Origin: a virus
Direction: 5' to 3' (one strand)
Virus record (IMG/VR): IMGVR_UViG_3300028844_003474
Span: 1-64,000 of that record
DNA: 64,000 nt
Under the pieces are notes generated by a model that saw nothing but the letters and a program-made list of their open reading frames with translations, did no database searches and was not told where the DNA came from. Each line of letters begins with the position of its first letter. Positions within the stretch are counted from its first letter, which is position 1. This document shows, piece by piece, positions 20,235-48,006 of the stretch. A program made the translations under genes and the position numbers.

Positions 20235-20313
20235 CGTGTTTGAGAAAAGCATCACATTTAACCGTGTGGTGTTTTTCTTTAGATATGACTCTGCCATCGC
20301 AAGCTCGACAGAG

Positions 20314-20339
20314 AAATGAAACCACGGCGACAGTGTAGC
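20314..20339 (+). promoter_or_regulatory. Phage motif copy 2
   Basis: AAATGAAACC-ACG-GCGAC-AGTG-TAGC. Confidence 0.65.
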
Positions 20340-20910: not shown

Positions 20911-20931
20911 AAAGTTCGATGGTAGATCTTC

Positions 20932-20957
20932 AAATGAAACCCTCGCTACGTGATAGC
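20932..20957 (+). promoter_or_regulatory. Phage motif copy 3
   Basis: AAATGAAACC-CTC-GCTAC-GTGA-TAGC. Confidence 0.7.
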
Positions 20958-21074
20958 AAGACAGAGTGAGTACGGGCCAAGCCATATACCACCTGTTTAG
21001 CTATAAATCCATGGCTATACCTTAACTACCTTAGTTATTGTATAGTCTTTTATTAACCTAATAAGTTTTTTATC

Positions 21075-23955: not shown

Positions 23956-24067
23956 TAAGGTTGAAACGTCAATCTTGCAGAGCAAACAAAACTGAGTATA
24001 GGTTTGGAATAATCTTCATGATTAGTTTTTTTGGTTTAGGAGTTTTCCAGTTCTCCTAGCTCTGCTT

Positions 24068-24093
24068 AAATGAACCCTACGCTACGTTGTAGC
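24068..24093 (+). promoter_or_regulatory. Phage motif copy 4
   Basis: AAATGAACCC-TAC-GCTAC-GTTG-TAGC. Confidence 0.7.
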
Positions 24094-24122
24094 AAATATA
24101 TATAATACACAAACACAAAATA

Positions 24123-26854: not shown

Positions 26855-26941
26855 ATGGAATTTATAAAAGAGAATTGGATTGATTTTACGTGCGCTGTTT
26901 ACTTTGTAGCAGCCTTTATTTTATTTACACTACTGACATGA
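26855..26941 (+). CDS. 28-aa single-TM peptide (not in ORF track)
   Basis: MEFIKENWIDFTCAVYFVAAFILFTLLT; ATGA-coupled to next gene. Confidence 0.6.
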   Translation: MEFIKENWIDFTCAVYFVAAFILFTLLT

Positions 26942-27225
26942 ATAAAAGTTTTTACTTCCTCTTGTTGCTTACGCCAACTGCGTGCACTGGTCCTGATATT
27001 CAAACAGATGTATACACCTATGGATACTCTAATGGTGTAGAAACTTATGAAGGATGGCAGCAATGTGATTTTAAAAGTTGCGAGGAAGTAGAATGTTGTA
27101 TAACTTCAAACATAGATGGAGCTATTATAACCTATGCTCCGTACGGGTACGATAGTTTAGTCATACAAATAGACTGTTGGACTAATGAGTGCCCAGACAC
27201 AGTTTACACACATCTATACAACTGA
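26938..27225 (+). CDS. Cys-rich lipoprotein
   Basis: MNKSFYFLLLLTPTA-C signal peptide II-like. Confidence 0.65.
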   Translation: MNKSFYFLLLLTPTACTGPDIQTDVYTYGYSNGVETYEGWQQCDFKSCEEVECCITSNIDGAIITYAPYGYDSLVIQIDCWTNECPDTVYTHLYN

Positions 27226-27671
27226 TGAACAAGAGAGATTTAAGTAGTATTGACACTATTGTCATTCATACTACTGCAACCCAAGAGAATCAAGAGGTTA
27301 CTATCGAACAAATCGATATGTGGCACAAAAAGAGAGGATGGGACATGGTGGGTTACCACTATGTTGTAGATCTGCAAGGTAAAGTTCATAAAGGCAGATG
27401 TATTACTCAAGTTGGAGCCCATGTTAAAGGGCACAACAAAACGAGTATAGGCATTTGCTATGTAGGAGGCCTTGATGAGAATGGAGACGCCAAAGACACT
27501 CTTAGGCCTATTCAAAAAAATGCTATTGGCTTTATGCTTTTAGCTTTAAAAGCGGTCTTGCAGCAACCTATGGTTGTAAAAGGCCATAAAGAATTCACTA
27601 ATAAAGCATGTCCATGTTTCGAAGTAAAAGACAAATTTGCATGGGAAATAGAGCAGTTAGCTATGGAGTAA
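27225..27671 (+). CDS. N-acetylmuramoyl-L-alanine amidase (T7 lysozyme-like endolysin)
   Basis: IHTTAT, GYHY, GAHVKGHN, SIGICYVGG, GHKEF..KACPCF. Confidence 0.93.
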   Translation: MNKRDLSSIDTIVIHTTATQENQEVTIEQIDMWHKKRGWDMVGYHYVVDLQGKVHKGRCITQVGAHVKGHNKTSIGICYVGGLDENGDAKDTLRPIQKNAIGFMLLALKAVLQQPMVVKGHKEFTNKACPCFEVKDKFAWEIEQLAME

Positions 27672-28054
27672 TATCCTTTTGTTTACTGTTTTTCTCTTCC
27701 TGTTACATACAACGTGAGCCCTGTCCTGCTTATGTAGATGACGCTGTGCCTGCGGGTACATATGACTACAATGGACCTTACGAATGTTCTAGATGGTACG
27801 AGCATAGATACGGATGGATTTGGAGTTCCGACAGCAAAGACGATGCTTTGTATCTCTGGTGGGAAATAACTCAACGTCCTATGTACTTTGAACAAGACGG
27901 AGAGTTTCGTTTTACAGTACGTTCTGACGACCAATTCGAATATAACTTCTTCGCGTTAGTAGAAAGCGCTAGCTGGCAAGACACTATTGGTCACATGCAG
28001 TATTACATTACTACTGATAGGGCTCGTAAATATTGGGACAAAGTACCACTATGA
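27640..28054 (+). CDS. Lipoprotein (start uncertain)
   Basis: ISFCLLFFSS-C lipobox, CPAY motif. Confidence 0.6.
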
Positions 28055-29940
28055 TATACTTAGTGTCACCTCAACAAATTATACTGACAGACGTAGTAAA
28101 ACAAATTACAGCGTCTGAAGCGCACCGAATACTAAAAGATGCAACCTACCTTCAAGTAGATTGTGAGACTACAGGCTTAAATCATATTGAGAATAAGCTG
28201 TTATTAATCCAAGTTGGTACAGCTGAACACCAAGTATTATGGGATGTTCGAGATGAAATGTATCTAACGTTACGATTAATCTTAGAAGATCGTCGAATCA
28301 AAATATTGCACAATGCAAGTTTTGACTACAAATTTCTCAGACAAGCTGATATTCAGCTTTTTAAAGTCTGGGATACCCTTGTAGTAGAAAAGTTATTACA
28401 TAACGGAGAAACAACTCCTAGAGGGTTTTTTAGGCTAATTAACCTAGTAGATCGTTATGAAAATGTAGAATTAAATAAAGAGCAACAAAAAAGTTTTATA
28501 GATCATGGAGGAGAATTTAGTATGGATCAGCTCGTATATGCAGCTAACGACGTTCGATATCTGGAGTCAATACGAGAACAACAGCTTAAGCACTTAAAAC
28601 AAAACGCTTTACTACAATGTGCTAAACTTGAGTGTGAAGCTGTGCTTGCTTTTGCTGACATTGAATACAATGGCATGACTGTTAATAGAGAAGCATGGCT
28701 TAATCTAGCTAACAAGGCCAAAGACAATGCTGTTTCTAGCCAATCTAAATTGAATCAGATTTTACTAGATGATTCTAAATTTAAAAAGTTTGTTCCCAAA
28801 ACGTATCAATCGTCATTGTTTGGAGATGAGACAAATGACAAGTTAAATAGCATTTCTGTCAATTGGTCTAGTCCAACTCAAGTGTTGCCTATACTGCAAC
28901 AGATAGTACCAGAGCTTGAAAATTGTGACACAAAACAGTTAGCATTAGCTTACAATGAAAGACATGAGCTAATTAAGCTTTATATTAAGTTTAGAGAAAA
29001 CAGCAAACTGTCTACTTCATTTGGTCAAGAGTGGCTTGATAAGCACGTTAGTAGCGATGGCAAAGTTCATACAAACTTTCAACAAATATTACGTACGGGT
29101 CGAGTCTCAAGCTCAAACCCTAACATGCAACAAATACCAGCTAATAATGAATATCGCAACTGTTTTATCTGCCCTGAAGGGTGGTCGTACATTTCGTCTG
29201 ACTTCTCGTCCCAAGAACTTTGCATTATTGCCTATGGTTCAAAAGATCCTGTTTGGCTCGAGTCCCTCGAAAGAGGAGAAGACCTTCACTCAGTCTGTGC
29301 GGATCTCGTCTACGGTGATACCTGGCAACAGGCAGCGGAACCAGACTGTGATTACTTACAATCCAGACAAAAGTGTTCGTGTCCAAAGCACAAAAAATTA
29401 CGAACTGCAGTAAAGAGCATTAATTTTGGCCTTGCATATGGTATGGGACCAAATAAGCTTGCAAATCAATTACAAATCAGTGTTGATGAAGCATCTGAAC
29501 TTATTAATAAGTATTTTAAAGTCTTTCCATCCATTAGAAACTTTCTTGACACCAACGCCAAGTTTGGTAAAGAGAAAGGATTCATTAGAACAATGGAACC
29601 TTATCGACGCATACGTTATTTCCCTAGTTGGAAAGGACGAGCTACAGACAAGGCTGATATGGGAAAAATTGACCGAATGTCTCGCAACACTCCCATCCAG
29701 GGAACAGCGGGAGACATGACTAAAGAAGCTATGATTAGATGTCGTCGTGAATTTATGAATAAAAGCGACATTAAAATGGTTATGGTGGTACATGACCAAA
29801 TTGACTTTATAGTCAAAGATCATACAATTGAATATTACACTAAAAGAATAACCCGCCACATGGAAGCTGCTGGTAAATCTATTATCACTAATGGTTTACT
29901 TAAAGCAGACACCACTGTAGCTAAAGCATGGGAAAAATGA
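28051..29940 (+). CDS. polA: DNA polymerase family A with 3'-5' exonuclease
   Basis: DCETTG, HNASFD, YAANDV; TGRVSSSNPNMQQIP, DFSSQEL, KSINFGLAYG, VHDQ; Cys-rich insert CDY...CSCPKH. Confidence 0.96.
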   Translation: MIYLVSPQQIILTDVVKQITASEAHRILKDATYLQVDCETTGLNHIENKLLLIQVGTAEHQVLWDVRDEMYLTLRLILEDRRIKILHNASFDYKFLRQADIQLFKVWDTLVVEKLLHNGETTPRGFFRLINLVDRYENVELNKEQQKSFIDHGGEFSMDQLVYAANDVRYLESIREQQLKHLKQNALLQCAKLECEAVLAFADIEYNGMTVNREAWLNLANKAKDNAVSSQSKLNQILLDDSKFKKFVPKTYQSSLFGDETNDKLNSISVNWSSPTQVLPILQQIVPELENCDTKQLALAYNERHELIKLYIKFRENSKLSTSFGQEWLDKHVSSDGKVHTNFQQILRTGRVSSSNPNMQQIPANNEYRNCFICPEGWSYISSDFSSQELCIIAYGSKDPVWLESLERGEDLHSVCADLVYGDTWQQAAEPDCDYLQSRQKCSCPKHKKLRTAVKSINFGLAYGMGPNKLANQLQISVDEASELINKYFKVFPSIRNFLDTNAKFGKEKGFIRTMEPYRRIRYFPSWKGRATDKADMGKIDRMSRNTPIQGTAGDMTKEAMIRCRREFMNKSDIKMVMVVHDQIDFIVKDHTIEYYTKRITRHMEAAGKSIITNGLLKADTTVAKAWEK

Positions 29941-30182
29941 CATTATCCATTGACAATGACCGGTACCTACAACCGGAAGAACCTGATACTCATACGTTTA
30001 AAGTAGATTTAATAGTAACTGTAGTCTACAGTTTTACTACAGAAATTGAAGCTGTAGGCAGAGAAAGCGTAAAAGGTATAGTTGAAGAGAATCAACGCTC
30101 TCTAATAGAAAAAACAGTTGATTTAGGAGAAAAAGATGAAGTTATGTTTGATATAGACTATATTTCTGAAGGACCTGACTGA
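29928..30182 (+). CDS. Acidic hypothetical protein
   Basis: ORF track. Confidence 0.6.
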   Translation: MGKMTLSIDNDRYLQPEEPDTHTFKVDLIVTVVYSFTTEIEAVGRESVKGIVEENQRSLIEKTVDLGEKDEVMFDIDYISEGPD

Positions 30183-30206
30183 CATACATACGTTTTATCT
30201 ATTTGC

Positions 30207-30252
30207 AATAAGAGTGGTATGCATTACATTGGTGATGCGTACTACTCTTATT
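30207..30252 (+). promoter_or_regulatory. 21-bp stem-loop ending 8 nt before the ATG at 30261
   Basis: AATAAGAGTGGTATGCATTAC-ATTG-GTGATGCGTACTACTCTTATT with three G-U pairs. Confidence 0.8.
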
Positions 30253-30260
30253 TACATCTA

Positions 30261-33200
30261 ATGAAAAGTATTTTATCATCAATAGCGTTAGTACTTACAG
30301 CGCTTTCAATAACAGCACAACCGCCTACGCCTGATTTTTCTTGCGGTCCAAGCACTTGGGATGGCCTAGGTAATAACCCTACGCCGGATGCGCAGGCTTT
30401 TATCTGCTATACTACCTCAGCTCCAATAGGTAAATATATTTATTGGAACCCGTTTGTTCATAATCCTGACATGACTGAACTTGCAATGCCTGCTGAGGAC
30501 TTTGCAGACTGGAATTGGGATAATATTTACGGCATGAAAGGTCGTTATGGAATTAATTTTCCTAGCTATTTAGGAGATGGAGATACATTATCTGCTCAAG
30601 TTTTTGAAACAAAACTGAATCCAACTAGTGAACCAGATGGAGATCTTCAAACTTTTACAGATCACCAATTTGATTTTTATGGAGGAAACTACAAGTTCAA
30701 TATTTTACACCTTGAGCAAGGTACTATTGTAAAAGTGCATCCGGGAGCAAGCATTGAGATTCATACTGCGTTAAGCATTGAGTACGGAGCTGTTCTAGAA
30801 ATTATGCCTGGTGCAACTGTATTGCTTAAAGCTACTAGAGACAATATAGCTGTGACTGACGTTCAAGGTGCGATTGAAGGTACTCTACAAAAAGAAGTTT
30901 ACTTTGATGTAAGTGACACTTGGCAAAGTCTTTCTCAATTTAATAAAGAACTTAGGTTTGTATTTAATCCGGGTATGTATAACGTAGACTTACATAAAGT
31001 TGCTTTAGACATACAGGCAGCTGCCACAGTACCATTGGCTTTTGGAAATTCAGAGCCAAGTGTTCAAATTGGTTATTGGGGAAAACGACCCACTTTCATA
31101 GAAACTCAATCTATGTATGACTTTGCTGCAATCCACACATATGAGTCTCCTTCTAGTTCTTTTGAACTTGTTGGAGACTCTAATCTTTTTGTAGGAGAAG
31201 CTGTTTTAAACACAGATGGATTTGTAATTAGCGAAAACGTCGGTCAAGAGTTTGCTTTAAGAACAAACAGCATGGCAGGTCATTTTTATAATTACAACGA
31301 GGGAGTTAGTATTCTCCCGATCTATCCTCCTACAGAAGACATTGGAACATCAGATGAAGCATTGCTAAACCACTGGTTTAACAGCGATGACTTTACAGGA
31401 TTTGCAGATGAGACTATTAACACAACCTCTGATATATCTAGTTTTTCAAAGACTCCAATAGAGTTAGATAGAACTTTTGCAGTGTCTTTAATGGGAGTAA
31501 CTAACAGTTTAGAAGACTTTAAAATTGTAGTTGAAGGTAAGTTTGACAGCAATAAATTTATTTCTGTCCAAAACTCTACTATAAGCCCGACCTTATTTGG
31601 AGTTGAACTCCCTTACCCTGGAGCTACTGCTACTTATATTGGATACCCAGATGCATATCCTGAACAAAGTGTTTTCTTTGAGTCTACTGCTATTGCAGAC
31701 CCTCCAAACAGTCTTTTATTTGGAGTGGATTTGTATTCTAGAACAGGAGCTGATGATTACTCTTTGTACAGAGGAGTAGATTTTAGCGGCTTGTCTGTTT
31801 TAAATAACAGAACAGGAAATTATTTAGATACATATGAAACCTTATTTACACTGCTTGCAACAGCTTTAGACGCTCAGTTAGCTTTGTTTGACATAGCTCC
31901 TCTTATAGGAAGACAAGATAGTCGAGACTTTAAGATTGACGCAGACACAGATAAGATGTATGAGTCTACAAGTGGAGAAGCTTTTCCTATTCCTGTTTCT
32001 AATTTACTTATTTGGGACGACACCGCTCCTCAATACCCAGGCGTAGAAATCACAGACTTTTATAACATAGAAGACATGAAAATCTTCTATGCAATCGGAG
32101 ATACGATTAGACCTGACGAAATGTTAGCCTATAATTACAATAATCCTTGTGATCCACAAACTATTGAAGGTGTAGGATATGACAATTATTCTACGTTTAA
32201 AGAAATAGGACTTAACTGGCTTAATAAAGGAGGCGTTTCAACTAGTGGAGCTCCTGTAGGCTCTCCTCCTGGAAGTGACACTGTTTATGCAACACGTACT
32301 AATGCTCCTGTATACAGAAAGACAGAGCAAGCTTATGTAAATAACAAACCTGTTTTAGGTTCTATGAAAGAAGCTAGAGTTCCTGTAGGACCTGGTAATG
32401 TTGGAAGTACCGAGATTTACGATTGGACTATTGAAGAATTAAACGACATGAACGAGTTTACTCTTTTGCGATTAGCAGGAGTAACTTTGTTAGGCGATAC
32501 GCTTACCATTGCAATTGTTCCTTTAGCTACAGATGAAGACTACAGTGCTACAGACATTGATTTGTTTGAGTCATCGGTTGCTGTAAATCCAATCATGTAT
32601 TTGTTACCTCCAACAGATGTGCATGTAATGAGTCGAAAGTGGGGGTCTTACGGAAGAGGAATTAATGATTTCAATGACTCTCTTCAACTTGTCATAGACT
32701 TTGAGGCTTTAGACTTTGTAACAAATGGAGCTAACAGTTTTTCAAAGCTATTTATTGATGCTCCTGTCAAACAAGTTGGAGCTTGTGGTCTTTCCGGAGA
32801 CAATCTTGTAGTAGCTACATCTACTGGTAATTTATATACCTGGGCTCCAGATTTTGAGTATGAAATTGATATGAATAGCACGTACAATATGCCAAATGAA
32901 AGTGGCAGTAGTGGAGACTACGGTAGCGGAGCTGTAGTTGACTTGTATTTTACTACTACTCAAGCAGACTTTAACGGAGACGGCTGCGTCACAACTGCTG
33001 ATCTTCTTATATTACTTGGTCATTTTGGTACCAATGTTACTCCTGGTAATTTTCAAAGTGTTGCAGCTGATTTAAACTGTGATGGTGTTATTAGTACATC
33101 TGACCTTCTTATCTACTTAGGCTTTTTTGGACAATGCGCTTCTGATAGTGAAATTCCTTCTGAAGAAGCTGGAACTGTCTTACAAAAAAGAGCAGCGTGG

Positions 33201-33629
33201 TATTTTGGAAATAACTTTAATAATGATCATGTCAGCTATGATATTATTGACGATTATCCTTCGTTTTCTCAAAGTCAAAGGGATTTTCTAAATCTGTGGC
33301 CTTATCCTGGTAAAATAACAGTTGTAGATGATTTAAATATGGTCATAGCTGACAAATGGCTAAACGGTCCTACGACCAATAATGGCGTTACTGGGTATTC
33401 AATAGAATTACCTGCTAATATGCCTACTTCAGCGCAATTAGACACAACCTCTGCTAAATATAGTGTTGATCTCCCTCAAACAGATCCTTCATATCGCATT
33501 TACATCGAATGGCGTGATGCTGTAAGAACTTTCCCAGGTATACCTGGCTCAATAAACCATATATGTTTAGGGTGTAAAGAAGATCCTAATGCAATTTTCC
33601 CCCTGACTCCAACTTTTGTTGCCAATTAA
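30261..33629 (+). CDS. Giant secreted acidic protein with paired dockerin-like EF-hand repeats
   Basis: Signal peptide MKSILSSIALVLTALSITA-Q; DFNGDGCVTTADLLILLGHFG and DLNCDGVISTSDLLIYLGFFG. Confidence 0.85.
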   Translation: MKSILSSIALVLTALSITAQPPTPDFSCGPSTWDGLGNNPTPDAQAFICYTTSAPIGKYIYWNPFVHNPDMTELAMPAEDFADWNWDNIYGMKGRYGINFPSYLGDGDTLSAQVFETKLNPTSEPDGDLQTFTDHQFDFYGGNYKFNILHLEQGTIVKVHPGASIEIHTALSIEYGAVLEIMPGATVLLKATRDNIAVTDVQGAIEGTLQKEVYFDVSDTWQSLSQFNKELRFVFNPGMYNVDLHKVALDIQAAATVPLAFGNSEPSVQIGYWGKRPTFIETQSMYDFAAIHTYESPSSSFELVGDSNLFVGEAVLNTDGFVISENVGQEFALRTNSMAGHFYNYNEGVSILPIYPPTEDIGTSDEALLNHWFNSDDFTGFADETINTTSDISSFSKTPIELDRTFAVSLMGVTNSLEDFKIVVEGKFDSNKFISVQNSTISPTLFGVELPYPGATATYIGYPDAYPEQSVFFESTAIADPPNSLLFGVDLYSRTGADDYSLYRGVDFSGLSVLNNRTGNYLDTYETLFTLLATALDAQLALFDIAPLIGRQDSRDFKIDADTDKMYESTSGEAFPIPVSNLLIWDDTAPQYPGVEITDFYNIEDMKIFYAIGDTIRPDEMLAYNYNNPCDPQTIEGVGYDNYSTFKEIGLNWLNKGGVSTSGAPVGSPPGSDTVYATRTNAPVYRKTEQAYVNNKPVLGSMKEARVPVGPGNVGSTEIYDWTIEELNDMNEFTLLRLAGVTLLGDTLTIAIVPLATDEDYSATDIDLFESSVAVNPIMYLLPPTDVHVMSRKWGSYGRGINDFNDSLQLVIDFEALDFVTNGANSFSKLFIDAPVKQVGACGLSGDNLVVATSTGNLYTWAPDFEYEIDMNSTYNMPNESGSSGDYGSGAVVDLYFTTTQADFNGDGCVTTADLLILLGHFGTNVTPGNFQSVAADLNCDGVISTSDLLIYLGFFGQCASDSEIPSEEAGTVLQKRAAWYFGNNFNNDHVSYDIIDDYPSFSQSQRDFLNLWPYPGKITVVDDLNMVIADKWLNGPTTNNGVTGYSIELPANMPTSAQLDTTSAKYSVDLPQTDPSYRIYIEWRDAVRTFPGIPGSINHICLGCKEDPNAIFPLTPTFVAN

Positions 33630-33630
33630 A

Positions 33631-36600
33631 ATGAAATACATTAAAAATACATTAATTAGCATCTTCTTAATAGGTGCATCTTTTGGAAGTCATGCGCAAT
33701 ATGCAGGCCAGTTCTCTGGAGTTCCTATAAATCTAGAAAGTGTTCCTCACCTTGAATATCTAATAGAGCTTGGTAGTATAGCGTGTACTACTGCTCCTTC
33801 GTGTGTAGTAAACGCTATGTCTTTTGATAATCCAGGAGCTGTAGAAGCTCTTCAAGGATATTCTTATGTAGGCACATCCGATCTTATTATTCAAAATTCT
33901 CAACATTTATCGTTGTGCCAAGGTTCAGCTCCTAATGATCCAAATGGAGTTACTAAAATTATACCTCTCAATACAATGTTTGAGAAAGGTATTAACATTG
34001 ATAGACTTTGGGTAGGTAGGCAAGTTACTCCAGTTTCAATCCCTCAAAGTCATTTAATTATAGACACTCAATATGATAGTCTTATTGTTGATGAAGTATG
34101 GGTTCCTTATGGTGCTACTCTTGAAATTATAGGACCCAATCCTTTAATCGTTAGAAAAGAGCTTCACAACAGAGGCACTATTATATGTGATGAAAACTTG
34201 TTAATTCCTGTAACCACGGATGATCCAGACGCTATAAAAGGTTTTCATGCTTTGTTTGAACAGAAAGGAGAAGTTATAGGAAGATACAGTGCTGAAGTTA
34301 TGCGAAACGAACGTCCTGAGTTTCTTAACTGGGATTGGGTTATAGAGAACTTTGGAGTTCAAGCTACTTTTATAGACTCGCTTCAAATGCTAGGACTAGA
34401 TCCATATGCTATAGGATTGTATGAAGAGATCTATGAGTCACATTTACTAGAAGGAGACCCCTGGTATATGTACAAATTAGAGCTAGATGGTGTAGAAGAA
34501 GTTTATAATCAGTTTTCAATGTCAGGAGTCCCTGTAAAAGGGGTTCGGTTTGGAGGTCAATATAAAGATTTTGCTCGAGTTGCACTGTACAAAGATGCAA
34601 GTCCTAGATTCCCATATAAATGGCAATTTCCTGAAGAAACTACATTACCTACTAGTTACAGTTTTTTGAGTGAACTAGGTGACGAAATTGCAGCTATTTA
34701 TATGAAACAGGAAGATTTAAATTATTATCATAATGTAGTATTGAACAATGCGCCTGAATTTTTTTCTAGCGGAAGTCTAAACGATTATGAAAATTACAGT
34801 GATTCATACACTACTGGAGAGTGGGAGCGAGTTTCGTTTATGAGACCAGAGCTAACGAATGAAATTGGTTTTAGCACTGGAATCCGCACTAGATATCAAT
34901 ATGGCTACGATGCTGAAACTGATACTTATATAGGAGAAGGCAACTGGTGGCCTTGGCAGTATGCAGACGGGGACCCTGGTTACCCTGATAATGTTCCTCT
35001 TCCTTGGGTAGATCCTGAAACAGGAGCGCTTGATTATAGTATTGAACAGATTGCACCAGAATATCTTGATAAAATATCTTATCAAGATTATAGAAACTTA
35101 GGTACTTATGTCAACGGTTCTGCATTTACTACTATAGATACAGACTTAGAAGAAATTTTTGTAAGCTTTGAGTACTGTTTGTCAGAAAATATAATTCATA
35201 CTTTAGAAGGACCAGAAATTTTACCAAATACAAGATTAGTTAATAACCCTATTGCTCAAGGACTTGACACTGTTTGGACTTGGAGACCTGGAGGGTGTAC
35301 AGATACTATTGTATCTACATATGGATTGTTTGACGCTGCACAATCAACAAACTCAGGAATTCTTTGGAATTTTTATTTAATGAATGATCCAACTCAAGAC
35401 AACATTTGGAATTTAACTGAAATGATGGAAAGAGATACTACAGTAGCGGGCTACGATAGTATTTATGATTACAATTGGTATTACAGAAATGAGTTAGAAG
35501 CAAGTCAAAGTATTTTTAATGGATGGGATATATGGTTTTCAAAAAGTCCAGATGTTGGGCCTAATTCTTACAGAGAAGGAAGTTTTTTTGGAGATGTAGA
35601 AACCATGGGTAGCAACGGTAACCAAATATGGGAAAACCCTATTAAATCATTCATAGCAGATACTGCAGGTCGTTTTATGCCTCAGTTATATGGAGATGCG
35701 ATAAATTGGGATTCAATTCTTGCACAGAATAGTTATTATGGTAACATAAATCTAGCTCCAAAGTTAGATAGCTGGCTTCCAGATATTCCAGAGCTTGGTT
35801 ACATGATGGATTTTTATCCAGATAGTATGAGAATGGATCCAGTAGAAACAAATCCTGCTTATGCTTGGTGGGGTGCTGATTGGGTTGCTCCTGATCATTC
35901 AACGCCTCAGCCGTTTCCTACCATGTCATTTCAATATGTTGGAGGTGTTCAAAATACCGAGTGGATTGATAGGTATACTGGATATTCTTGGATGAATACT
36001 TTAGATGCATACAACGATTCTAGGATGACTTATCATCCACAAACGTTTGAATCAGATCCAATAATACCTAATCTTCCGCCAAATAATAGTGAAGACCATC
36101 TTATATCATATAAGTTACCTACTGCTACCGATTGGGTTTATACATACGCGCCTAACGGCTTATTGTATGAAGCTCAAACATGGAGTGAATGTCTTGAAGT
36201 AAATGATACAACCTTTTGTATTAATTATTTTAACGGAGTTAACCAAGCTTATGATGAGTGGGGTATTTCGATAGAAAATGATTTAACTAGTATTTCTAAT
36301 AGCGCATACGATGACGCTGATCTAGAAATAGCTTTTAATAACTATTATACTCGACGTAACAGATGGGGTTCTCTAGCAAATCCTTTACATGGTTATTTAG
36401 ACTTGGATTTAGTTGCTGACCGCTATTTTGAAGATTATCCTGAATCTAATCACTTAGAATTTGCTTGGTGGAATCCTCAAAACACTACTGGCACTTCTAA
36501 TACAAATCCTGGAAATGTTCTTAATGGTACACGAAAATACTGGAGACGTAAGTATCATAGATATGGAGACGAAATTGTTCAAGACGAGATTGAATATTTC

Positions 36601-39555
36601 CTTACGTTGCTGACAGAGCAGTTTTTTGCTCAAAATGGAGAAGGTTTTTCTAATGAGTTAACTGAAGTCATTCTATCATTTTTAAATGAAGACGGAATAG
36701 CACCCGGTACTCCTGCATTTAACTGGTTAATAAGCGCTCCTGTTAATCCTAATGGTTATGTCGGTATTGGGCAATATGCAATGCCCGGATCAGGAGTTTG
36801 GGCACAAAATAGTTCAGGATCTCCCGTAAGTCTGGAAATAACTGCAGATATGGGTGTCTATGATTTTGAATTTCCTTTAAGCACAGGTAATGAAGTTTAT
36901 CTCGGATCAGCAGGTCCTGGAAGTGATGGAACTGGATACGGAGGACGTGCAGCAGTTGCAAGTCAATCATCTCAGAATTACACTCCTGCAGATCATTCTA
37001 CAATAGTTGTACTTGACTATGTAAATGACAGTACGTATATGCCTTGGATCTTTTTACACCATCGATTTATGGACGATGCTACAAATGGTTCTGAGCAAAT
37101 TTTTGAAGACAACCATAACTCTATGCCAAACTTTCCATGGGTCTTTACAGACTCTACTAAAGTTAGAGCTTCTAATTACGTTGAAGAATATGGTCCACAC
37201 AATCAACAACCCTTGTATGTAAACATTCCTCAACCTCTAGATACTAATGAAGGTGCTTGGTGCTTTATCCCTACTCTTTTTCAAGACACGGGATCTACTT
37301 GGTATGATGTAGAGTCTGGCAACATTTATAATAGACTTGGATTAGAGTTGTTTGATAGTAATGGGGATATTACTAACATCATTTATTTAGATGAAGGAGA
37401 TACTCTGTGGATAAGGCATAATGATCCGTACGATTGGCCTATTAAAGGCAAAATGTATTTTACCAACTTATATGGAGACATTAATGGAGATGGTATAATT
37501 AATATTAATGACCTTATAGAGTTGTTTACATACTTTTTGTTATGTGAGGATGAAGCTTCTGAAATTGCATATTTTGACGCAAATGGAGACGGGTGTATTA
37601 CTACATCTGATTTCATAGTAGTCTTAGCAAACTTTGGAGGTACTGTAGGTAGTGCTATTGGTGACTTTAGCGGAAGTGTATGGGATGAAGTAGGCCCTGA
37701 AAGATTGGCCTACAGTGGAAATAGATGGGATCACCCTGATTGGCCTACTGCAGACATTGAAGCAGCTTTTGTTGGAGGTACTTTCCCAAGTATCTATGAA
37801 ATTGGAAACGTTAATGCTACAAAGATTTTAAATATGCCTGGAGAGAAAATTCAGGTGTTTAACAGCAGATTAAACAGTTTTATAGAAGGTCAAAACTCTA
37901 TTCAACTGCCAACAACTGGAGGTCCTTACTTTATTGTTACAGACAGAACAGTCTCATATTATGATGTAACTGAAGTTCCTGACGTTGTTACTGTAACTGC
38001 TACAGATGCTACTATTAGCGATGCTAACGGAGGTAAAACTGCAGTTCTTCCTTCTTTAGCTGCTGCATACGTTGGGGGCGCTAATCAGTTTTGGACAAAC
38101 TTCTATGAAGACATGAAGACAATAGATGGAGGATTTGATGCAGATAATGCTGATGCTCCTACGTTGGCTCAGGTTTATTACGGTATTAACTCTGGAGTAA
38201 GCGCTAATCCTCTTAATTTAAACAATGCTAAAGTTGAAGGTTTAATTGACATGTTTGGCGCAGGTGATGCTAGACATGGATATACTCTTGAATCTTCTAT
38301 TGGCGTTCAAAATGACGATCGATGGACTAAAACTGCTACAGGATACACCAACTTTAAGCTAAATAGAGATTATCCACTTTTTCAGCCTACTATGGTTCCT
38401 CTGGCTTACGCTTTACCTAGAGTTAGAAGTTCTAGAGACGAAGAGCAAATTTTACCAAGATTTGAAACACAGGCAAAAATAGATAGACTTTTTAACGACG
38501 GTATAGCTGAGAATTTTGATGAGTTTAGCGAACTTTCTGGAAGAAGAGAGCCTGGCGTTACAGAATGGGGAGGAGACATTAAAGTACATTATGATGTTCC
38601 TTTACATAATGGTGTATTAGCAATGTGTGATTTCATGACACTGCAAGATTATTTTGAATTTAAGATGTATGGAGTTAGTCCTAAGTTTGGACAAACTAAT
38701 GCAGGTTCTTCAAATCCTAGAACTGTTACTGAAAGCTTTGGTACCGTTTACAATACTGGAGCAGTTGAAGGTGTTCCTAACGCTCCTGGTATTGGATACG
38801 CTCCAAGCTTGTGTAACAATCTTGCAGATTACAGCAGTAATATTGTAATTCCATTTTTAACTGCTAACATTGGAAATACCGTAGTATTACCTCAAGATCC
38901 TACGCCTGTTACTCAAGACGGAATTCAGCGTAATACTGATGATGCAGGTCACCAAAACTGGTTTGGAAATTCTGCTGCATTTGTACATAACGGAAGTTTT
39001 GGACCGCTTGTATATGATTTTAATATGAATGGTACTTGGGATGCAGATGATTTGACTATTTGGAATAACTTGGTTACAGTATGGACTGACAATAATATCA
39101 GAGAAGGTCAAGAATCTTATTCTGATGCAAGTTATTACAGGCCTGCAACAGACGCTTTAAATGAAGCTGTTAACGTCATACATGACTATGAGGATGGAGG
39201 ATCTTATTATGCTTCTTGGAATTTTAACAAATGGTTTGATGCTACTGCTACTGCAGATCCATTCGGCTACGTTGACAACTGGCATGCTTGTTTAAACCAA
39301 CCAGAATGGAATTTAAACCTAATAAACCTTGTAGAATTAACTACAACTGCGTTTAAAGGAACAAGTGTTAAAGAAGATTCATTTTTGTACAACACTGATA
39401 GAACTGGATTTAATCCAAGTTTACTTGTTCCTACAGTCTTAAACAATTATGGAAAAGTTGCTATAGGCGACTATGTACCCGCCGGAGATTTACTTGAATA
39501 TCAAGTTGTACCAAGTAGTAATTACTTTCCAGTTACAATGTATTGGCATCCTTGA
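33631..39555 (+). CDS. Giant secreted acidic protein with paired dockerin-like EF-hand repeats
   Basis: Signal peptide MKYIKNTLISIFLIGASFGSHA-Q; DINGDGIININDLIELF and DANGDGCITTSDFIVVLANFG; extra DFNMNGTWDADD. Confidence 0.85.
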   Translation: MKYIKNTLISIFLIGASFGSHAQYAGQFSGVPINLESVPHLEYLIELGSIACTTAPSCVVNAMSFDNPGAVEALQGYSYVGTSDLIIQNSQHLSLCQGSAPNDPNGVTKIIPLNTMFEKGINIDRLWVGRQVTPVSIPQSHLIIDTQYDSLIVDEVWVPYGATLEIIGPNPLIVRKELHNRGTIICDENLLIPVTTDDPDAIKGFHALFEQKGEVIGRYSAEVMRNERPEFLNWDWVIENFGVQATFIDSLQMLGLDPYAIGLYEEIYESHLLEGDPWYMYKLELDGVEEVYNQFSMSGVPVKGVRFGGQYKDFARVALYKDASPRFPYKWQFPEETTLPTSYSFLSELGDEIAAIYMKQEDLNYYHNVVLNNAPEFFSSGSLNDYENYSDSYTTGEWERVSFMRPELTNEIGFSTGIRTRYQYGYDAETDTYIGEGNWWPWQYADGDPGYPDNVPLPWVDPETGALDYSIEQIAPEYLDKISYQDYRNLGTYVNGSAFTTIDTDLEEIFVSFEYCLSENIIHTLEGPEILPNTRLVNNPIAQGLDTVWTWRPGGCTDTIVSTYGLFDAAQSTNSGILWNFYLMNDPTQDNIWNLTEMMERDTTVAGYDSIYDYNWYYRNELEASQSIFNGWDIWFSKSPDVGPNSYREGSFFGDVETMGSNGNQIWENPIKSFIADTAGRFMPQLYGDAINWDSILAQNSYYGNINLAPKLDSWLPDIPELGYMMDFYPDSMRMDPVETNPAYAWWGADWVAPDHSTPQPFPTMSFQYVGGVQNTEWIDRYTGYSWMNTLDAYNDSRMTYHPQTFESDPIIPNLPPNNSEDHLISYKLPTATDWVYTYAPNGLLYEAQTWSECLEVNDTTFCINYFNGVNQAYDEWGISIENDLTSISNSAYDDADLEIAFNNYYTRRNRWGSLANPLHGYLDLDLVADRYFEDYPESNHLEFAWWNPQNTTGTSNTNPGNVLNGTRKYWRRKYHRYGDEIVQDEIEYFLTLLTEQFFAQNGEGFSNELTEVILSFLNEDGIAPGTPAFNWLISAPVNPNGYVGIGQYAMPGSGVWAQNSSGSPVSLEITADMGVYDFEFPLSTGNEVYLGSAGPGSDGTGYGGRAAVASQSSQNYTPADHSTIVVLDYVNDSTYMPWIFLHHRFMDDATNGSEQIFEDNHNSMPNFPWVFTDSTKVRASNYVEEYGPHNQQPLYVNIPQPLDTNEGAWCFIPTLFQDTGSTWYDVESGNIYNRLGLELFDSNGDITNIIYLDEGDTLWIRHNDPYDWPIKGKMYFTNLYGDINGDGIININDLIELFTYFLLCEDEASEIAYFDANGDGCITTSDFIVVLANFGGTVGSAIGDFSGSVWDEVGPERLAYSGNRWDHPDWPTADIEAAFVGGTFPSIYEIGNVNATKILNMPGEKIQVFNSRLNSFIEGQNSIQLPTTGGPYFIVTDRTVSYYDVTEVPDVVTVTATDATISDANGGKTAVLPSLAAAYVGGANQFWTNFYEDMKTIDGGFDADNADAPTLAQVYYGINSGVSANPLNLNNAKVEGLIDMFGAGDARHGYTLESSIGVQNDDRWTKTATGYTNFKLNRDYPLFQPTMVPLAYALPRVRSSRDEEQILPRFETQAKIDRLFNDGIAENFDEFSELSGRREPGVTEWGGDIKVHYDVPLHNGVLAMCDFMTLQDYFEFKMYGVSPKFGQTNAGSSNPRTVTESFGTVYNTGAVEGVPNAPGIGYAPSLCNNLADYSSNIVIPFLTANIGNTVVLPQDPTPVTQDGIQRNTDDAGHQNWFGNSAAFVHNGSFGPLVYDFNMNGTWDADDLTIWNNLVTVWTDNNIREGQESYSDASYYRPATDALNEAVNVIHDYEDGGSYYASWNFNKWFDATATADPFGYVDNWHACLNQPEWNLNLINLVELTTTAFKGTSVKEDSFLYNTDRTGFNPSLLVPTVLNNYGKVAIGDYVPAGDLLEYQVVPSSNYFPVTMYWHP

Positions 39556-39560
39556 TCATG

Positions 39561-39586
39561 AAATGAAACCCTGGCTATGATATAGC
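39561..39586 (+). promoter_or_regulatory. Phage motif copy 5
   Basis: AAATGAAACC-CTG-GCTAT-GATA-TAGC. Confidence 0.7.
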
Positions 39587-39588
39587 AT

Positions 39589-40836
39589 ATGATGAAAGTA
39601 AACAGCAAAAAATTAAAAAGACAGAAAGAAGTATTACGTAAATGGGTAGCAAATAAGTGTAAGGGCACGTTAGAAGCGTGTACAGGATTTGGCAAAACTT
39701 ACACTGCAATATTAGCTATTCAAAAGACGAACGAGCAATATCCAGATTACAACATACTCGTTGTAGTGCCTACAAAGCACTTAAAGACGCAATGGAGTAA
39801 TGAAATTAAGAACCACGGCCTCACTAATACTGAGGTCGTGGTCATTAATACGGGTATTAAACAAGCGAGAAACTGTGATTTTTTAATTCTTGACGAGATA
39901 CATAATTACGCTAGTTATGTATTTAGCAAAATATTTTCACTGGTTTCTTACAAATGGGTTTTAGGATTAACTGCAACTTTAGAAAGACGAGATCAAAGAG
40001 ATGTTTTAATTAGAGATAAAGCGCCAGTTATTGATAGAATAACATTAACAGATGCTTTAAAAGAAGGTTATGTTTCAGAGTTTGTAACTTATAACGTACC
40101 GCTTATCCTTAGTGAAGCTCAGAGTAAAGATTACCAAGAGATGAGCAATGAGTTTAGTTTTTACTTTTCTAAGTTTGGTCATGACTTTGGTTCAGCAATG
40201 CACTGTCTTAAAAGCAAACCTGCTCGTGAAAACATAGCTAGAAAACAAGGAGTTACAGAAGGTCAAGTAATGGGATGGGCAGCTCAGTTTCAGAAAAACC
40301 TAGCTCGTAGAAAAAGTTATTTGTACAATCACCCTATTAAGCTAGAAGCAGCTGGTCGCATTGTAAACAGTGTGGATTTAAAGATGATAACTTTTAGCGA
40401 AAGCATAGATTTTACCAAAAAACTTACGGATATTACACATCCTTGGTCTGCCGCGTATCACGGCAAGATGGCTAAGTACCAAAGAGATGCAGTCCTTAAA
40501 GATTTTGAGGACGATAAGAGAGACATCAGAGTAATCAACGCAGCTAAAGCGTTAGACGAAGGATTAGATGTACCCGGAGTAGAAGTGGCGTTGATCTGTA
40601 GTGGTACCTCGGGGGGTAGGCAAAACATCCAACGCACAGGACGTGCAATTAGATTTCAAGAAGGGAAAAAAGCATTCATCATTAACTTGTATATAAAGAA
40701 TACACAAGATGAAAAATGGTTGCGAAAAAGACAAGAAAAGAACACTAACACGGTGACTCTAGAAGGAGTTGATGATTTGCTTTACAAGATTGCAGGAATC
40801 GAATCAGATAGAGTCACATTTGACCTATTTCAATGA
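39589..40836 (+). CDS. Superfamily 2 (DExH) helicase
   Basis: TGFGKT, DEIH, LTAT, LDEGLDVP, QRTGRAIR. Confidence 0.93.
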   Translation: MMKVNSKKLKRQKEVLRKWVANKCKGTLEACTGFGKTYTAILAIQKTNEQYPDYNILVVVPTKHLKTQWSNEIKNHGLTNTEVVVINTGIKQARNCDFLILDEIHNYASYVFSKIFSLVSYKWVLGLTATLERRDQRDVLIRDKAPVIDRITLTDALKEGYVSEFVTYNVPLILSEAQSKDYQEMSNEFSFYFSKFGHDFGSAMHCLKSKPARENIARKQGVTEGQVMGWAAQFQKNLARRKSYLYNHPIKLEAAGRIVNSVDLKMITFSESIDFTKKLTDITHPWSAAYHGKMAKYQRDAVLKDFEDDKRDIRVINAAKALDEGLDVPGVEVALICSGTSGGRQNIQRTGRAIRFQEGKKAFIINLYIKNTQDEKWLRKRQEKNTNTVTLEGVDDLLYKIAGIESDRVTFDLFQ

Positions 40837-45511: not shown

Positions 45512-45773
45512 TCACGGGTGGGATCGTTCAACTGTTATTGACGGTGCATTGCCTGCGCCTTTAACTTACACTGATACACACAATTGGCTTAAGGCTAATT
45601 TTGCACTTACAGATGAAATAAGAGAAGACGGAATTGTTTTAGGCATGAAGATTATGTCTACTACAGATATGACAATAAAAAGATTTAGTGTCTACATCGA
45701 AAGCATTCGACAGTGGGCAGCAGAGTATATGAATACAGAGATTCCAGATCCACAATTACAATATGAATTATGA
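45405..45773 (+). CDS. NinB/YbcN-like recombination protein
   Basis: RTxAQNRFYW...STTxMT...F..YIE.I..WA...IPDP. Confidence 0.75.
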   Translation: MIDPNSEVTPTTKRTTAQNRFYWKIVVPIVCSTLTDHGWDRSTVIDGALPAPLTYTDTHNWLKANFALTDEIREDGIVLGMKIMSTTDMTIKRFSVYIESIRQWAAEYMNTEIPDPQLQYEL

Positions 45774-48004
45774 AAATAGCAAAACAACAACGCCAGTATG
45801 AATCCAATATAACTGGTCAAAAGAAAAGCATGGGCTTTGCTCCAGATGCTGCATCTCATCTAGCAGAGTTAATGTCTAATTCTGTGTATTCTGATAAGTA
45901 CGGTAGTATTATTCGCGAAGTTGTGTCTAATGCGATTGACGCAACTAAAGAAGCAGGATCTAAAGAGCTTGTAACAATTACAGTTGAAGCTGCAGCACAG
46001 ATGTCTGAGCAAGTAAGCACCTTAACAGTAAGAGATTACGGCTTAGGTATTACTCCAGATCGTATGGATAATATCTTTACTCAATACTTTGCATCTACAA
46101 AAAGAGACACTAACGAACAGATTGGTGGTTTTGGCATTGGTGCCAAAAGTCCTTTTGCATACACTCCTTTATTCTTTGTACAAACGCACATAGATGGAGT
46201 TACACGAAAGTACATTCTTGAAAAGACAGAGTCAGATAGAACATGTACTCTTATGGATGAGTACGAAGAAGCTACAGCAAATGGCACTAGCATTACAATT
46301 CCTATTCACTCTAGCAAAGCAGAAAAACAGTTTATTAAAGCAATTCAAAAGCAACTTGTATTCTTAAGCGATAAGGTAACAATCTATGTACCTCATAAAT
46401 ACAACTTTAAAATGCCTAAGGTTGTAGATTATGGGTCTATTCTCTGTATATCAGATCTAGACTACGATACGTATGACTCGGAGTCAAGGTATACTAACAC
46501 CGAAGGCATAATGATCTGTCTAGGTGATATCTATTATGAAATACCGGCTATAGATGACAGAAAAGGAAGTAGAAATTTTGCAATTAAATTTCCAATCGGA
46601 GCGCTTAGTCCTACTTTGTCTAGAGAGAGTATAGAAATTAACGATACAGCTAGAAAACTTATTAGTGACAAGCTTGATGAAATAGATATATTGTTTGAAA
46701 CCTGGCGTGTAGACCAATCTAAGCCAGTGTTTAAGATGGAAGACATTTTAAACAGGAACAATAGATATGTTGTGTATCCAGAATCTGATATTACTGTATA
46801 CAGTGGCAAGAATATGGGTTACAATGGAAATCAGATATCTGTTAGAACGATATATGAAGGATGGCCTGAAAAGATTACTTATTACAGTGCTATAATTGAT
46901 AAAATTATTACTTGTAAAAGCTACAAACGAGACGGAAAATGGACTTCGTCTAAAGTATGGGATTTTTCATCAACTGTTATTCGAAGGACAGACTGGAAGA
47001 TAAGAAAAGACAATTATCAGATAATGCTTAAAGGATCTGATTTTAAGCTTGGAACTATTGGTAGGGAATATATTTCTCACAAATTTCCAAATGAAAATGT
47101 CATGCTTCTAAACGTAGAACGCGATATTAAAAGTGTTATACTTGATGTTTGCGGTAAGCATGATTTTTTAAATGAAGAAACCTTAACTGCTGCAGCTAAA
47201 ACCTTAACTCGCACTCTTAATGAGTACTTTAAACGTAAGTGTATTCGTCTTAAAGACTATCAACCAGATGATGAATGGCTTGAAGCTCGCAAAGTGCGTG
47301 TTAAAAATGAAAGAGTTCTAAATAATACTTGGACAAAAGAAGCTCTTCAGGTAGAATGCCCTGTTAAAAAAGTATGGGCAGAGGGTAAGTTAACTAGAGA
47401 GATAATTAAGTATGAAGATGTAAAGAAGCATCAAGATCGATACATTTTTATGCCATATCAACTGGCTAAAACGCTTTATCTTAGTTCAGAACCTACTAAG
47501 CCTGTTACTATCTATGCTGCAAGCGTTCCTAATCTTAAGAAACTTACGAGTTTAGGTGCTCATGTTTGGGATGAAAACCGATTAGCCAAGCACAATGCTA
47601 GAGAATATAGTAAATATGAGATTGAAATATTACGAAACTCTTTATTGAAAGCAATATCTAGAGAGTTAAACGATAATAATCAAAGTTTTGTAGAGTTTAT
47701 AGATAGTATGATTTCTAACGTACTTCCAAACTGTACAGAGTCTGCAGTAACTTTTGGTTACACTAAAGCACCGAAGTATTATTGGGAGATTGAAAAAGAA
47801 TCTATGGCTAATGGAGTGTACACAATAGATGGTACAAAATACAACGTTAAGAAAATAGCTAAACAAGTTAGATTGTACAAAAAGAGATTATGCAGAAGCG
47901 TAGAAGGCAAAGTACTTTGTTGCCAGATCTACGCTTTTGATAGACCCCATTTAGAGATTACGTTTTCAGAATATAAGAATTTATTTCACACTTTAATTAA
48001 ATAA
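45770..48004 (+). CDS. rIIA: rIIA-like protein with GHKL ATPase domain
   Basis: YSDK..IIREVVSNAIDA, DYGLG, STKR..N.QIGGFGIGAKSPFAY. Confidence 0.88.
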   Translation: MKIAKQQRQYESNITGQKKSMGFAPDAASHLAELMSNSVYSDKYGSIIREVVSNAIDATKEAGSKELVTITVEAAAQMSEQVSTLTVRDYGLGITPDRMDNIFTQYFASTKRDTNEQIGGFGIGAKSPFAYTPLFFVQTHIDGVTRKYILEKTESDRTCTLMDEYEEATANGTSITIPIHSSKAEKQFIKAIQKQLVFLSDKVTIYVPHKYNFKMPKVVDYGSILCISDLDYDTYDSESRYTNTEGIMICLGDIYYEIPAIDDRKGSRNFAIKFPIGALSPTLSRESIEINDTARKLISDKLDEIDILFETWRVDQSKPVFKMEDILNRNNRYVVYPESDITVYSGKNMGYNGNQISVRTIYEGWPEKITYYSAIIDKIITCKSYKRDGKWTSSKVWDFSSTVIRRTDWKIRKDNYQIMLKGSDFKLGTIGREYISHKFPNENVMLLNVERDIKSVILDVCGKHDFLNEETLTAAAKTLTRTLNEYFKRKCIRLKDYQPDDEWLEARKVRVKNERVLNNTWTKEALQVECPVKKVWAEGKLTREIIKYEDVKKHQDRYIFMPYQLAKTLYLSSEPTKPVTIYAASVPNLKKLTSLGAHVWDENRLAKHNAREYSKYEIEILRNSLLKAISRELNDNNQSFVEFIDSMISNVLPNCTESAVTFGYTKAPKYYWEIEKESMANGVYTIDGTKYNVKKIAKQVRLYKKRLCRSVEGKVLCCQIYAFDRPHLEITFSEYKNLFHTLIK

Positions 48005-48006
48005 AA

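Follow-up and report, generated by a model that had tools for sequence, protein, structure and literature searches.

Giant dockerin-bearing proteins with a conserved export-type N terminus are encoded next to the DNA polymerase gene in a marine crAss-like phage lineage

INTRODUCTION

The number of phage proteins that leave the cytoplasm is usually taken to be low, and those that are known, such as spanins, exclusion lipoproteins, and some endolysins, are small. Examples of superinfection exclusion or receptor masking, among them T5 Llp and T4 Imm and Sp, likewise involve small lipoproteins or membrane proteins. In bacteria, secreted proteins that carry a dockerin are common. Marine Bacteroidota, which are abundant, are the main degraders of algal polysaccharide. 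Here, we analyze a 64,000-nucleotide stretch of viral DNA (positions 1 to 64,000 of IMG/VR record IMGVR_UViG_3300028844_003474, referred to as the window), in which two giant tandem genes, ORF-A and ORF-B, encode proteins that combine a predicted Sec signal peptide with a dockerin. The closest dockerin systems are the noncellulosomal type I dockerins and cohesin-dockerin complexes of Clostridium perfringens NagH/NagJ (PDB 2ozn) and Pseudobacteroides cellulosolvens Cel48 (PDB 2y3n).

Phage-encoded proteins that appear adapted to export from Bacteroidota have been described before. Prophages of Porphyromonas gingivalis encode proteins of unassigned function with signal peptides that obey the Q-rule (Gln directly after the cleavage site), which were read as an adaptation to Bacteroidota export and as potential outer membrane modifiers (Matrishin et al. 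2023, PMC10367356). The flexible islands of "Cryophage" encode type A cargo of the type IX system of secretion (T9SS) with recognizable C-terminal domains (CTDs) and CAZyme or PA14 domains (Bellas et al. 2020, PMC7468147). With respect to the present locus, we argue that ORF-A and ORF-B form a clade-specific accessory island, the products of which leave the cytoplasm and act on the envelope of the infected cell rather than in the virion, a reading to which we assign a probability of roughly 0.6.

RESULTS

Two giant genes between PolA and a helicase gene

The window is contained in a 74,143-bp record with an estimated completeness of 87% (CheckV). In a minus-strand block, the record carries a large terminase, a portal, and a major capsid protein (MCP) of the crAss type (PHROG 6681, E 3e-143; PHROG 6547, E 1e-127; and PHROG 11589, E 1e-89, respectively). 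The MCP is 32 to 34% identical to those of crAss-like phages of Bacteroides and Flavobacterium. Judged by these genes, the source is a marine crAss-like phage. A tyrosine integrase was not detected across the 74 kb of this 87% complete record, and given this result, the phage is probably lytic.

ORF-A and ORF-B are arranged in tandem on the plus strand, with 1 nt separating the stop codon of ORF-A from the start codon of ORF-B, and together take up 9.3 kb, or approximately 12.5%, of the 74-kb record. Their sizes and coordinates (Table 1) had been reported in a first-pass annotation that was made from the sequence alone, and these proved correct on translation. DNA polymerase A (PolA) is encoded 5' of ORF-A and an SF2 helicase 3' of ORF-B, followed by DnaB, a Sak4-type ATPase, primase, rIIA, rIIB, and an exonuclease. 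The annotation also placed the pair inside the replication module, which holds for the interval between PolA and the helicase but not for the region directly 5' of PolA, where an amidase endolysin and two lipoprotein genes are found.

The export signal is invariant among distant homologues

ORF-A and ORF-B both start with MK, followed by a hydrophobic core, a small-x-small motif, and Q (ITA before the Q in ORF-A and SHA in ORF-B). By sequence, this is the pattern of a substrate of Sec and signal peptidase I (SPI) that follows the Q-rule, i.e., a basic n-region, a hydrophobic h-region, small residues at positions -3 and -1, and Gln at +1. Homologues were compared in alignments of the ORF-A family (A2), the ORF-B family (A3), and seven ORF-B members (A1). 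Gln was found at +1 in all 25 homologues inspected (12 of ORF-A, 10 of ORF-B, and 3 further ones from contig L019), down to 24 to 30% identity, so the Sec signal peptide before Gln that had been noted in both ORFs is a constant feature of the two families. When every ORF of the genome was scanned in a crude way, no other N terminus of the SPI/Q type emerged.

Gln after the SPI site is specific for Bacteroidetes, where it occurs in a mean of 71% of the substrates; it is cyclized to pyroglutamate in the periplasm and is by itself no sorting signal for any compartment or for the T9SS (PMC5837995). Because this Bacteroidota-type signal peptide is invariant, export of ORF-A and ORF-B via the Sec translocon and signal peptidase I of the host is strongly suggested; conservation of the Gln would have no rationale if the proteins stayed in the cytoplasm. 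Both families also contain invariant cysteines (C28 and C49 plus those of a C-terminal CLGC in ORF-A; C854, C863, C1305, C1322, and C1887 in ORF-B), a pattern that would fit an oxidizing compartment.

ORF-A and ORF-B are genuine phage genes

The GC content is flat at 0.37 over the island and both of its flanks. The locus was detected in marine metagenomes of seven studies, and contigs from four of these metagenome runs were placed on it. An independent assembly (X3) bridges both PolA/ORF-A (28332 to 30806) and ORF-B/helicase (39320 to 40134), and a single 13.3-kb contig of depth 40 from a second study (X5) spans ORF-A to DnaB. Pieces of the locus were found at 99% identity in a viral-fraction metagenome, and contigs from a metatranscriptome library (X19) matched PolA, ORF-A, and ORF-B at 99% identity, which may reflect DNA carryover. 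Two odd joints (36642>37480 in X19 and 29509>40973 in X5) have flanks of <30 nt and were disregarded. The same gene order is present in L003, a metagenome contig that is 95% identical. Among more distant phage contigs, PolA is followed in G001 and L019 by an ORF-A homologue, a pair of ORF-B paralogues, and the helicase, and G002, a complete 85,481-bp genome with direct terminal repeats (DTR), carries PolA, ORF-A, ORF-B, and the helicase. All family members sit on environmental contigs of ≤80 kb. When genomes of 185,579 species of bacteria and archaea (one per species) were scanned with the ORF-B alignment, no relative emerged; the ORF-A alignment was too variable to yield search patterns. Neither ORF-A, ORF-B, nor the ORF-B dockerin gave a tblastn match in 50,697 GenBank phage records, and PHROG contains no family for either protein at an E value of ≤0.01.

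The first-pass annotation had named read coverage across the junctions and synteny in related phages as checks, and in both respects the locus behaves as authentic phage DNA: independent contigs bridge the junctions, and the gene order is kept in relatives. It might still be asked whether the locus is an assembly chimera or a recent capture of host DNA that is functionless in the phage, given that the dockerin is the sole part with relatives beyond the phage families, approximately 300 environmental proteins matching the dockerins alone. Considering the unbroken composition, the bridging of both junctions in independent studies, the synteny in four phage contigs including one complete genome, the full-length conservation down to 24 to 30% identity, and the lack of a bacterial homologue in the species genomes searched with ORF-B, we regard both of these readings as refuted and give them practically no chance. 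Both ORF-A and ORF-B are real genes, carried by a marine crAss-like phage.

Both proteins carry a dockerin but share little further sequence

Paired DxNxDGxxxxxD repeats had been recognized in the two ORFs on first inspection. These correspond to type I dockerins that match Pfam PF00404 (Dockerin_1) above its gathering cutoff of 22.9 bits in both proteins (Table 1), in 9 of 12 ORF-A family members, and in all seven ORF-B members of alignment A1. Each dockerin consists of two tandem segments of approximately 22 residues, in which a Ca loop of the type D-x-[ND]-x-[DN]-G-x5-D is followed by a helix, and the loop residues are invariant in both alignments. In addition, an AlphaFold2 (AF2) model of ORF-A places its dockerin on solved dockerins. 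The profile and structure checks that had been proposed agree: sequence identifies a real dockerin in both proteins, and for ORF-A the predicted fold supports it as well. No match to the cohesin family PF00963 was found at an E value of ≤1 anywhere in the 74-kb phage, nor does the phage contain a member of the CsgG family. In a literature search, no description of a crAss-like phage with a dockerin protein turned up, in line with the initial remark that no such system is known to have been described in Crassvirales; one paper, by its title and abstract on the virome of an anaerobic digester, mentions dockerins and crAss-like phages in passing.

Outside the signal peptide and the dockerin region, the two proteins show little in common. 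ORF-A comprises, in this order, the signal peptide, a beta-helix, middle regions with no recognized fold, a beta-rich region, the dockerin, and a C-terminal module that ends in CLGC...F.AN. ORF-B comprises the signal peptide, approximately 1,260 residues with no recognized fold, the dockerin, a post-dockerin module, and a conserved C-terminal region of approximately 530 residues. A common layout with beta-solenoid-like N-terminal regions had been proposed for both. For ORF-A, the AF2 model and VIA matches to beta-helix proteins bear this out, and its N-terminal part is modeled as a right-handed beta-helix, a fold that occurs in adhesins, polysaccharide lyases, and tailspikes; as a layout common to both proteins, it did not stand. 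When the two families were compared profile to profile (hhalign), only the dockerin and some 60 residues beyond it aligned (97.8% probability), so that, besides the signal peptide, the shared layout comprises no more than the dockerin and a short module behind it. The possibility that ORF-A and ORF-B are full-length paralogues was rejected on the same grounds.

ORF-A has 13 full-length or near-full-length representatives among 1.84 billion cluster representatives, with 24 to 57% identity. The best match in a BFVD fold search of ORF-A was a 587-residue "putative hemin binding protein" of an uncultured marine phage, which is unconvincing (E 5e-5; TM score, 0.12 to 0.21; root mean square deviation, 27.6); its name recalls HBP35, a T9SS cargo. 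For ORF-B, an AF2 model of residues 790 to 1974 from a 10-row alignment was unusable (mean pLDDT, 35.6), and nothing beyond the dockerin was recognized by Pfam, NCBIfam, PHROG, PDB-sequence, or Atlas search. The ESM Atlas contained no usable match for ORF-A or for residues 790 to 1275 of ORF-B, and a search for shorter relatives of the C-terminal region of ORF-B gave only a fragment at a contig end. With regard to type V secretion, neither protein has a Pfam barrel or POTRA match, and the model of the ORF-A C terminus is not a barrel.

The giants diversify rapidly

Evolutionary rates were computed for one strain pair, the window and L003. The dN/dS was 0.52 for ORF-B (125 nonsynonymous and 64 synonymous differences) and 0.53 for the tail of ORF-A, compared with 0.05 for the helicase, 0.07 for DnaB, 0.13 for Sak4, and 0.15 for a 218-residue ORF. 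Both giants therefore evolve about 10 times faster than the adjacent replication genes. The copy number of ORF-B (one or two) and its C-terminal module also differ among phages. Two ORF-B paralogues are present in L004 (13389 to 23383) and in L019 (14200 to 17730 and 17718 to 20759), and because one of the L019 copies (1,177 residues) ends approximately 100 residues past the dockerin, the C-terminal region of some 530 residues in the ORF-B of the window is an optional module. Fast evolution combined with variation in copies and modules fits the pattern expected at an interface with a host or competitor. It does not discriminate among the roles that had been proposed for the proteins, i.e., receptor masking, adhesion, grazing protection, and support of a carrier state.

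A clade-specific set of envelope-directed genes flanks PolA

Profiles of three families were used to search 80 IMG/VR loci with PolA relatives. ORF-A and ORF-B are limited to a sublineage with a PolA that is at least 65% identical to that of the window, consisting of the window, G001/L004, L019, and G002/L020. In L021 and L022 (PolA identity, 58 to 62%), L017, and approximately 75 sister loci (45 to 49%), the helicase lies within 0.2 to 2 kb of PolA and the island is absent. The island carriers, and only these four contigs, have four further genes next to PolA, encoding a 222-residue ORF, a Cys-rich putative lipoprotein, an amidase, and a signal peptidase II (SPII)-type lipoprotein, the last of which occurs in all 4 contigs with the island and is lacking from all of the approximately 75 sister loci. 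Hence, the giants belong to a clade-specific set of envelope-directed genes flanking PolA.

The trio of lipoprotein, amidase, and lipoprotein may combine an endolysin and spanin-like partners suited to a host from the Bacteroidota. We considered the SPII lipoprotein as the phage's own anchor for the dockerin. A complex prediction for its residues 33 to 148 with the ORF-B dockerin (residues 1265 to 1350) and two Ca ions gave an ipSAE of 0.02, which speaks neither for nor against binding; the site of the gene beside the amidase suggests a role in lysis rather than anchoring.

Two types of hairpin occur at the borders of the ORF-A/ORF-B pair (Table 1). The perfect hairpin just upstream of ORF-A could be a terminator after PolA and the 84-residue ORF or a gate on ORF-A translation, and an out-of-frame "MHYI.DAYY" reading that it shares with the homologue P0012 suggests that its DNA is conserved. 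The motif in the gap between ORF-B and the helicase recurs at 20313 to 20339, 20925 to 20958, and 24061 to 24094, and these GAAATGAAACC-type repeats are candidate promoters or terminators of middle genes.

Other features of the genome were noted in passing. The rIIA- and rIIB-like genes (PHROG 612 and 609; window positions 45770 to 49137) lie in the same plus-strand block as ORF-A and ORF-B and represent a further membrane-associated function in that block. Genes for three phage tRNAs, Leu(TAA), Arg(TCT), and Met(CAT), are located between positions 22245 and 23955. A minus-strand ORF of >3,930 residues (positions 52198 to 63999) extends past the window and presumably encodes a giant virion RNA polymerase-type protein, as is typical of crAss-like phages.

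TABLE 1 Features in and around the ORF-A/ORF-B island, in window coordinates
Feature	Coordinates	Strand	Evidence and remarks
Putative small Cys-rich lipoprotein, MNKSFYFLLLLTPTAC...	26938..27225	+	Homologues at this position confined to L004, L019, and L020; lipobox noncanonical, lipoprotein call inferred
N-Acetylmuramoyl-L-alanine amidase, endolysin type	27189..27671	+	Pfam Amidase_2 E 8.3e-13, 49.2 bits (cutoff, 26); PolA-adjacent homologues only in island-bearing relatives
Conserved SPII-type lipoprotein, lipobox FSSC (LSGC/TSGC in relatives)	27608..28054	+	3' end overlaps PolA start; family of nine, with C32, C39, and C60 invariant
DNA polymerase A with 3'-5' exonuclease	28033..29940	+	Pfam DNA_pol_A E 3.5e-70, DNA_pol_A_exo1 E 3.5e-21; PHROG 17
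84-residue acidic ORF between PolA and ORF-A	29928..30182	+	Homologues only in L004, L019, and L020
Perfect 21-bp RNA hairpin	30207..30252	+	Ends 8 nt 5' of the ORF-A start codon; minimum free energy -31.7 kcal/mol, z -8.0 versus 200 shuffles
ORF-A, 1,122 residues from MKSIL	30261..33629	+	Translation; 13 full-length or near-full-length representatives
ORF-A predicted signal peptide, MKSILSSIALVLTALSITA then Q	30261..30317	+	Read from sequence; Q20 invariant and A19 nearly invariant in A2
ORF-A right-handed beta-helix (predicted), approximately residues 28 to 270	30342..31070	+	AF2 model and VIA matches to beta-helix proteins
ORF-A type I dockerin, DFNGDGCVTTAD... / DLNCDGVISTSD...	32964..33113	+	Pfam 27.3 bits; six-frame E 8e-9
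ORF-B, 1,974 residues from MKYIK	33631..39555	+	Translation; family of 10, 27 to 93% identity
ORF-B predicted signal peptide, MKYIKNTLISIFLIGASFGSHA then Q	33631..33696	+	Read from sequence; Q23 invariant in A3
ORF-B type I dockerin, DINGDGIININD... / DANGDGCITTSD...	37471..37623	+	Pfam 33.4 bits; six-frame E 2.5e-10; PDB-sequence profile match 2y3n_B E 2e-7
Third, single EF-hand/F-hand-like loop in ORF-B C-terminal region, DFNMNGTWDADDL	39016..39054	+	D1796, G1801, W1803, D1807, and L1808 invariant in A3; Ca binding inferred from motif
Intergenic hairpin motif, GAAATGAAACC..GCTA(5 nt)TAGCA	39554..39587	+	Repeat families D1 and D3; fills the 33-nt ORF-B/helicase gap
SF2 helicase	39589..40836	+	Pfam ResIII E 3.1e-18, Helicase_C E 1.8e-13; PHROG 16

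DISCUSSION

The data presented here are best explained if ORF-A and ORF-B act outside the cytoplasm of the infected cell. We favor a role apart from the virion because neither protein matches a PHROG family and both genes lie outside the minus-strand structural block. In the mechanism that we propose, the Sec machinery of the host would export both giants during infection, signal peptidase I would expose the Gln, which host glutaminyl cyclase probably cyclizes, and the conserved Cys pairs would form disulfides. Their site of action would then be the periplasm, the envelope, or the surface, and not the particle. The dockerin may function as a Ca-dependent tether to a partner that is most likely a component of the host envelope and is not encoded by the phage as a recognizable cohesin, while the large variable domains may bind or cut glycans or proteins of the envelope or surface. 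The most likely benefit would be that the cell surface is altered or occupied, so that later phages are blocked or progeny is kept from sticking to debris. Next in line would be a contribution to envelope breakdown at release.

Several points weigh against this explanation. Export is read from a sequence pattern and its conservation, and we infer a Bacteroidota host from crAss kinship and from the Q-rule. In ORF-B, the larger of the two proteins, the searches identified nothing besides the dockerin, and a catalytic motif was recognized in neither protein. The proposed binding partner of the dockerin is hypothetical, and no cohesin is known for many noncellulosomal dockerin-like modules, which may serve another purpose. 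In the absence of a route across the outer membrane, the giants may stay in the periplasm, which is a poor fit to a role at the surface. The raised dN/dS was obtained for one pair of close strains, and part of it could be due to relaxed constraint. Finally, all carriers are members of a single clade, so the co-occurrence of the giants with the lysis-type genes amounts to one evolutionary event.

The genomic setting could also be taken to indicate egress factors, i.e., exported enzymes or envelope breakers that, together with the amidase and the lipoproteins, breach the outer envelope, the capsule, or a surface layer upon lysis and so release the progeny. The giants are indeed encoded on the same strand and within 2 to 3 kb of the Amidase_2 endolysin and its two flanking lipoprotein genes, in a set that is gained or lost together, and the beta-helix is a fold common to pectate lyases and phage depolymerases. 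We consider this doubtful, as neither protein matches a lyase or hydrolase family, the known disruptors of the outer membrane (spanins and disruptins) are small, and sister phages manage without the island, the co-occurrence again being that of a single clade. A different role would be that of ordinary virion fibers or receptor-binding proteins that happen to be encoded away from the structural block, with uncleaved N termini or with particles picking the proteins up after lysis. Tail fibers and tailspikes typically show giant size, a beta-helix, rapid evolution, and turnover of paralogues, and weak Foldseek matches to T5 tail tip and tailspike proteins were obtained (E 0.03 to 0.1). However, a signal peptide followed by Q in 25 of 25 homologues has no rationale in a virion part that is assembled in the cytoplasm. 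Moreover, matches to PHROG (E ≤ 0.01) or to GenBank phages are lacking, the genes lie in the plus-strand block with replication and lysis genes, opposite those for capsid, portal, and tail, and the conserved Cys pairs and Ca loops fit an extracytoplasmic life. Hence, we regard virion fibers as very unlikely.

The first-pass annotation had taken both proteins for T9SS cargo on account of beta-rich segments beyond the dockerins that were likened to a type A CTD: after Sec export, the CTD would take them through the type IX system of the host, and the dockerin would fix them to a cohesin scaffold on its surface. The host probably belongs to the Bacteroidota, a phylum in which the T9SS is common. 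In addition, ORF-A and one L019 paralogue of ORF-B end in a conserved post-dockerin module of approximately 100 to 150 residues that could be an unrecognized sorting domain, and the weak BFVD match carries a name suggestive of such cargo. Phage-encoded type A cargo has a precedent in "Cryophage" (PMC7468147). Against this stands the failure of three CTD models to match at an E value of ≤10 in six frames or in protein scans (PF18962, TIGR04131, and TIGR04183, the last being the check that the annotation itself had suggested), in a search whose control genomes included no T9SS organism over the cutoff. A T9SS CTD is a seven-strand, 3+4 Ig-like beta-sandwich at the extreme C terminus (PMC11285876). 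The model of the C-terminal 150 residues of ORF-A (pLDDT, approximately 70 to 87) instead contains helices and four strands, and no CTD structure was among the VIA matches listed. The segment singled out in ORF-B (approximately residues 1405 to 1445) is internal, with some 530 conserved residues still to follow, and the Q-rule is no sorting signal for the T9SS (PMC5837995). The likeness to a CTD was thus not upheld, and we judge passage through the T9SS to be rather improbable.

Returning to action on the infected-cell envelope, the invariant export signal, the fast evolution, and the turnover of paralogues point to an arms-race role at the surface of marine Bacteroidota. Relatives with a second copy of ORF-B invest even more of their genome than the 9.3 kb found here. 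In its most specific form, which we put forward tentatively and would not yet expect to hold in full, a probably lytic marine crAss-like lineage re-dresses the envelope of an infected Flavobacteriia-type cell with giant, diversifying, dockerin-tethered, and Sec-exported proteins that are held by a receptor module of the host or by an unrecognized one of the phage. If true, this would define a new class of extracytoplasmic phage effectors and would be the first case of a virus using a functional system of the cohesin-dockerin type. Tethering of the dockerins to a host partner would amount to a modular surface display system run by a virus, and it would provide a handle on superinfection, adsorption to debris, or release in crAss-like phages. 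The analysis yields two new protein families and one lipoprotein family.

How, then, does this locus relate to what has been described? In contrast to the dockerin proteins of C. perfringens and P. cellulosolvens, the proteins are encoded by a phage that has no cohesin (PF00963) of its own, the dockerin of ORF-B is internal, and the attached domains belong to no known family. For ORF-A, the nearest fold group is that of the beta-helix adhesins and depolymerases, which includes the autotransporter passengers Pet and Hbp, VacA p55, pectate lyases, and phage tailspikes. With T5 Llp and T4 Imm and Sp, the giants would share that they are exported phage products of lytic growth at the host envelope for which fast evolution is expected, a functional resemblance only, receptor binding being hypothetical here. 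Like the proteins of the P. gingivalis prophages, ORF-A and ORF-B are phage encoded and have a Sec signal peptide that would expose an N-terminal Gln, but those prophages are temperate and oral and have no reported dockerin, whereas the present proteins are giants of 1,100 to 2,000 residues from a marine crAss-like phage. As in "Cryophage," the host is of the Bacteroidota type and the genes for secreted or surface proteins are variable, differing between phage variants; unlike the "Cryophage" proteins, however, ORF-A and ORF-B lack a recognizable T9SS CTD and a known catalytic or PA14 domain. Exported envelope proteins encoded by phages are a known kind, and what is new here is that they are giant, carry a dockerin, and occur in a crAss-like phage.

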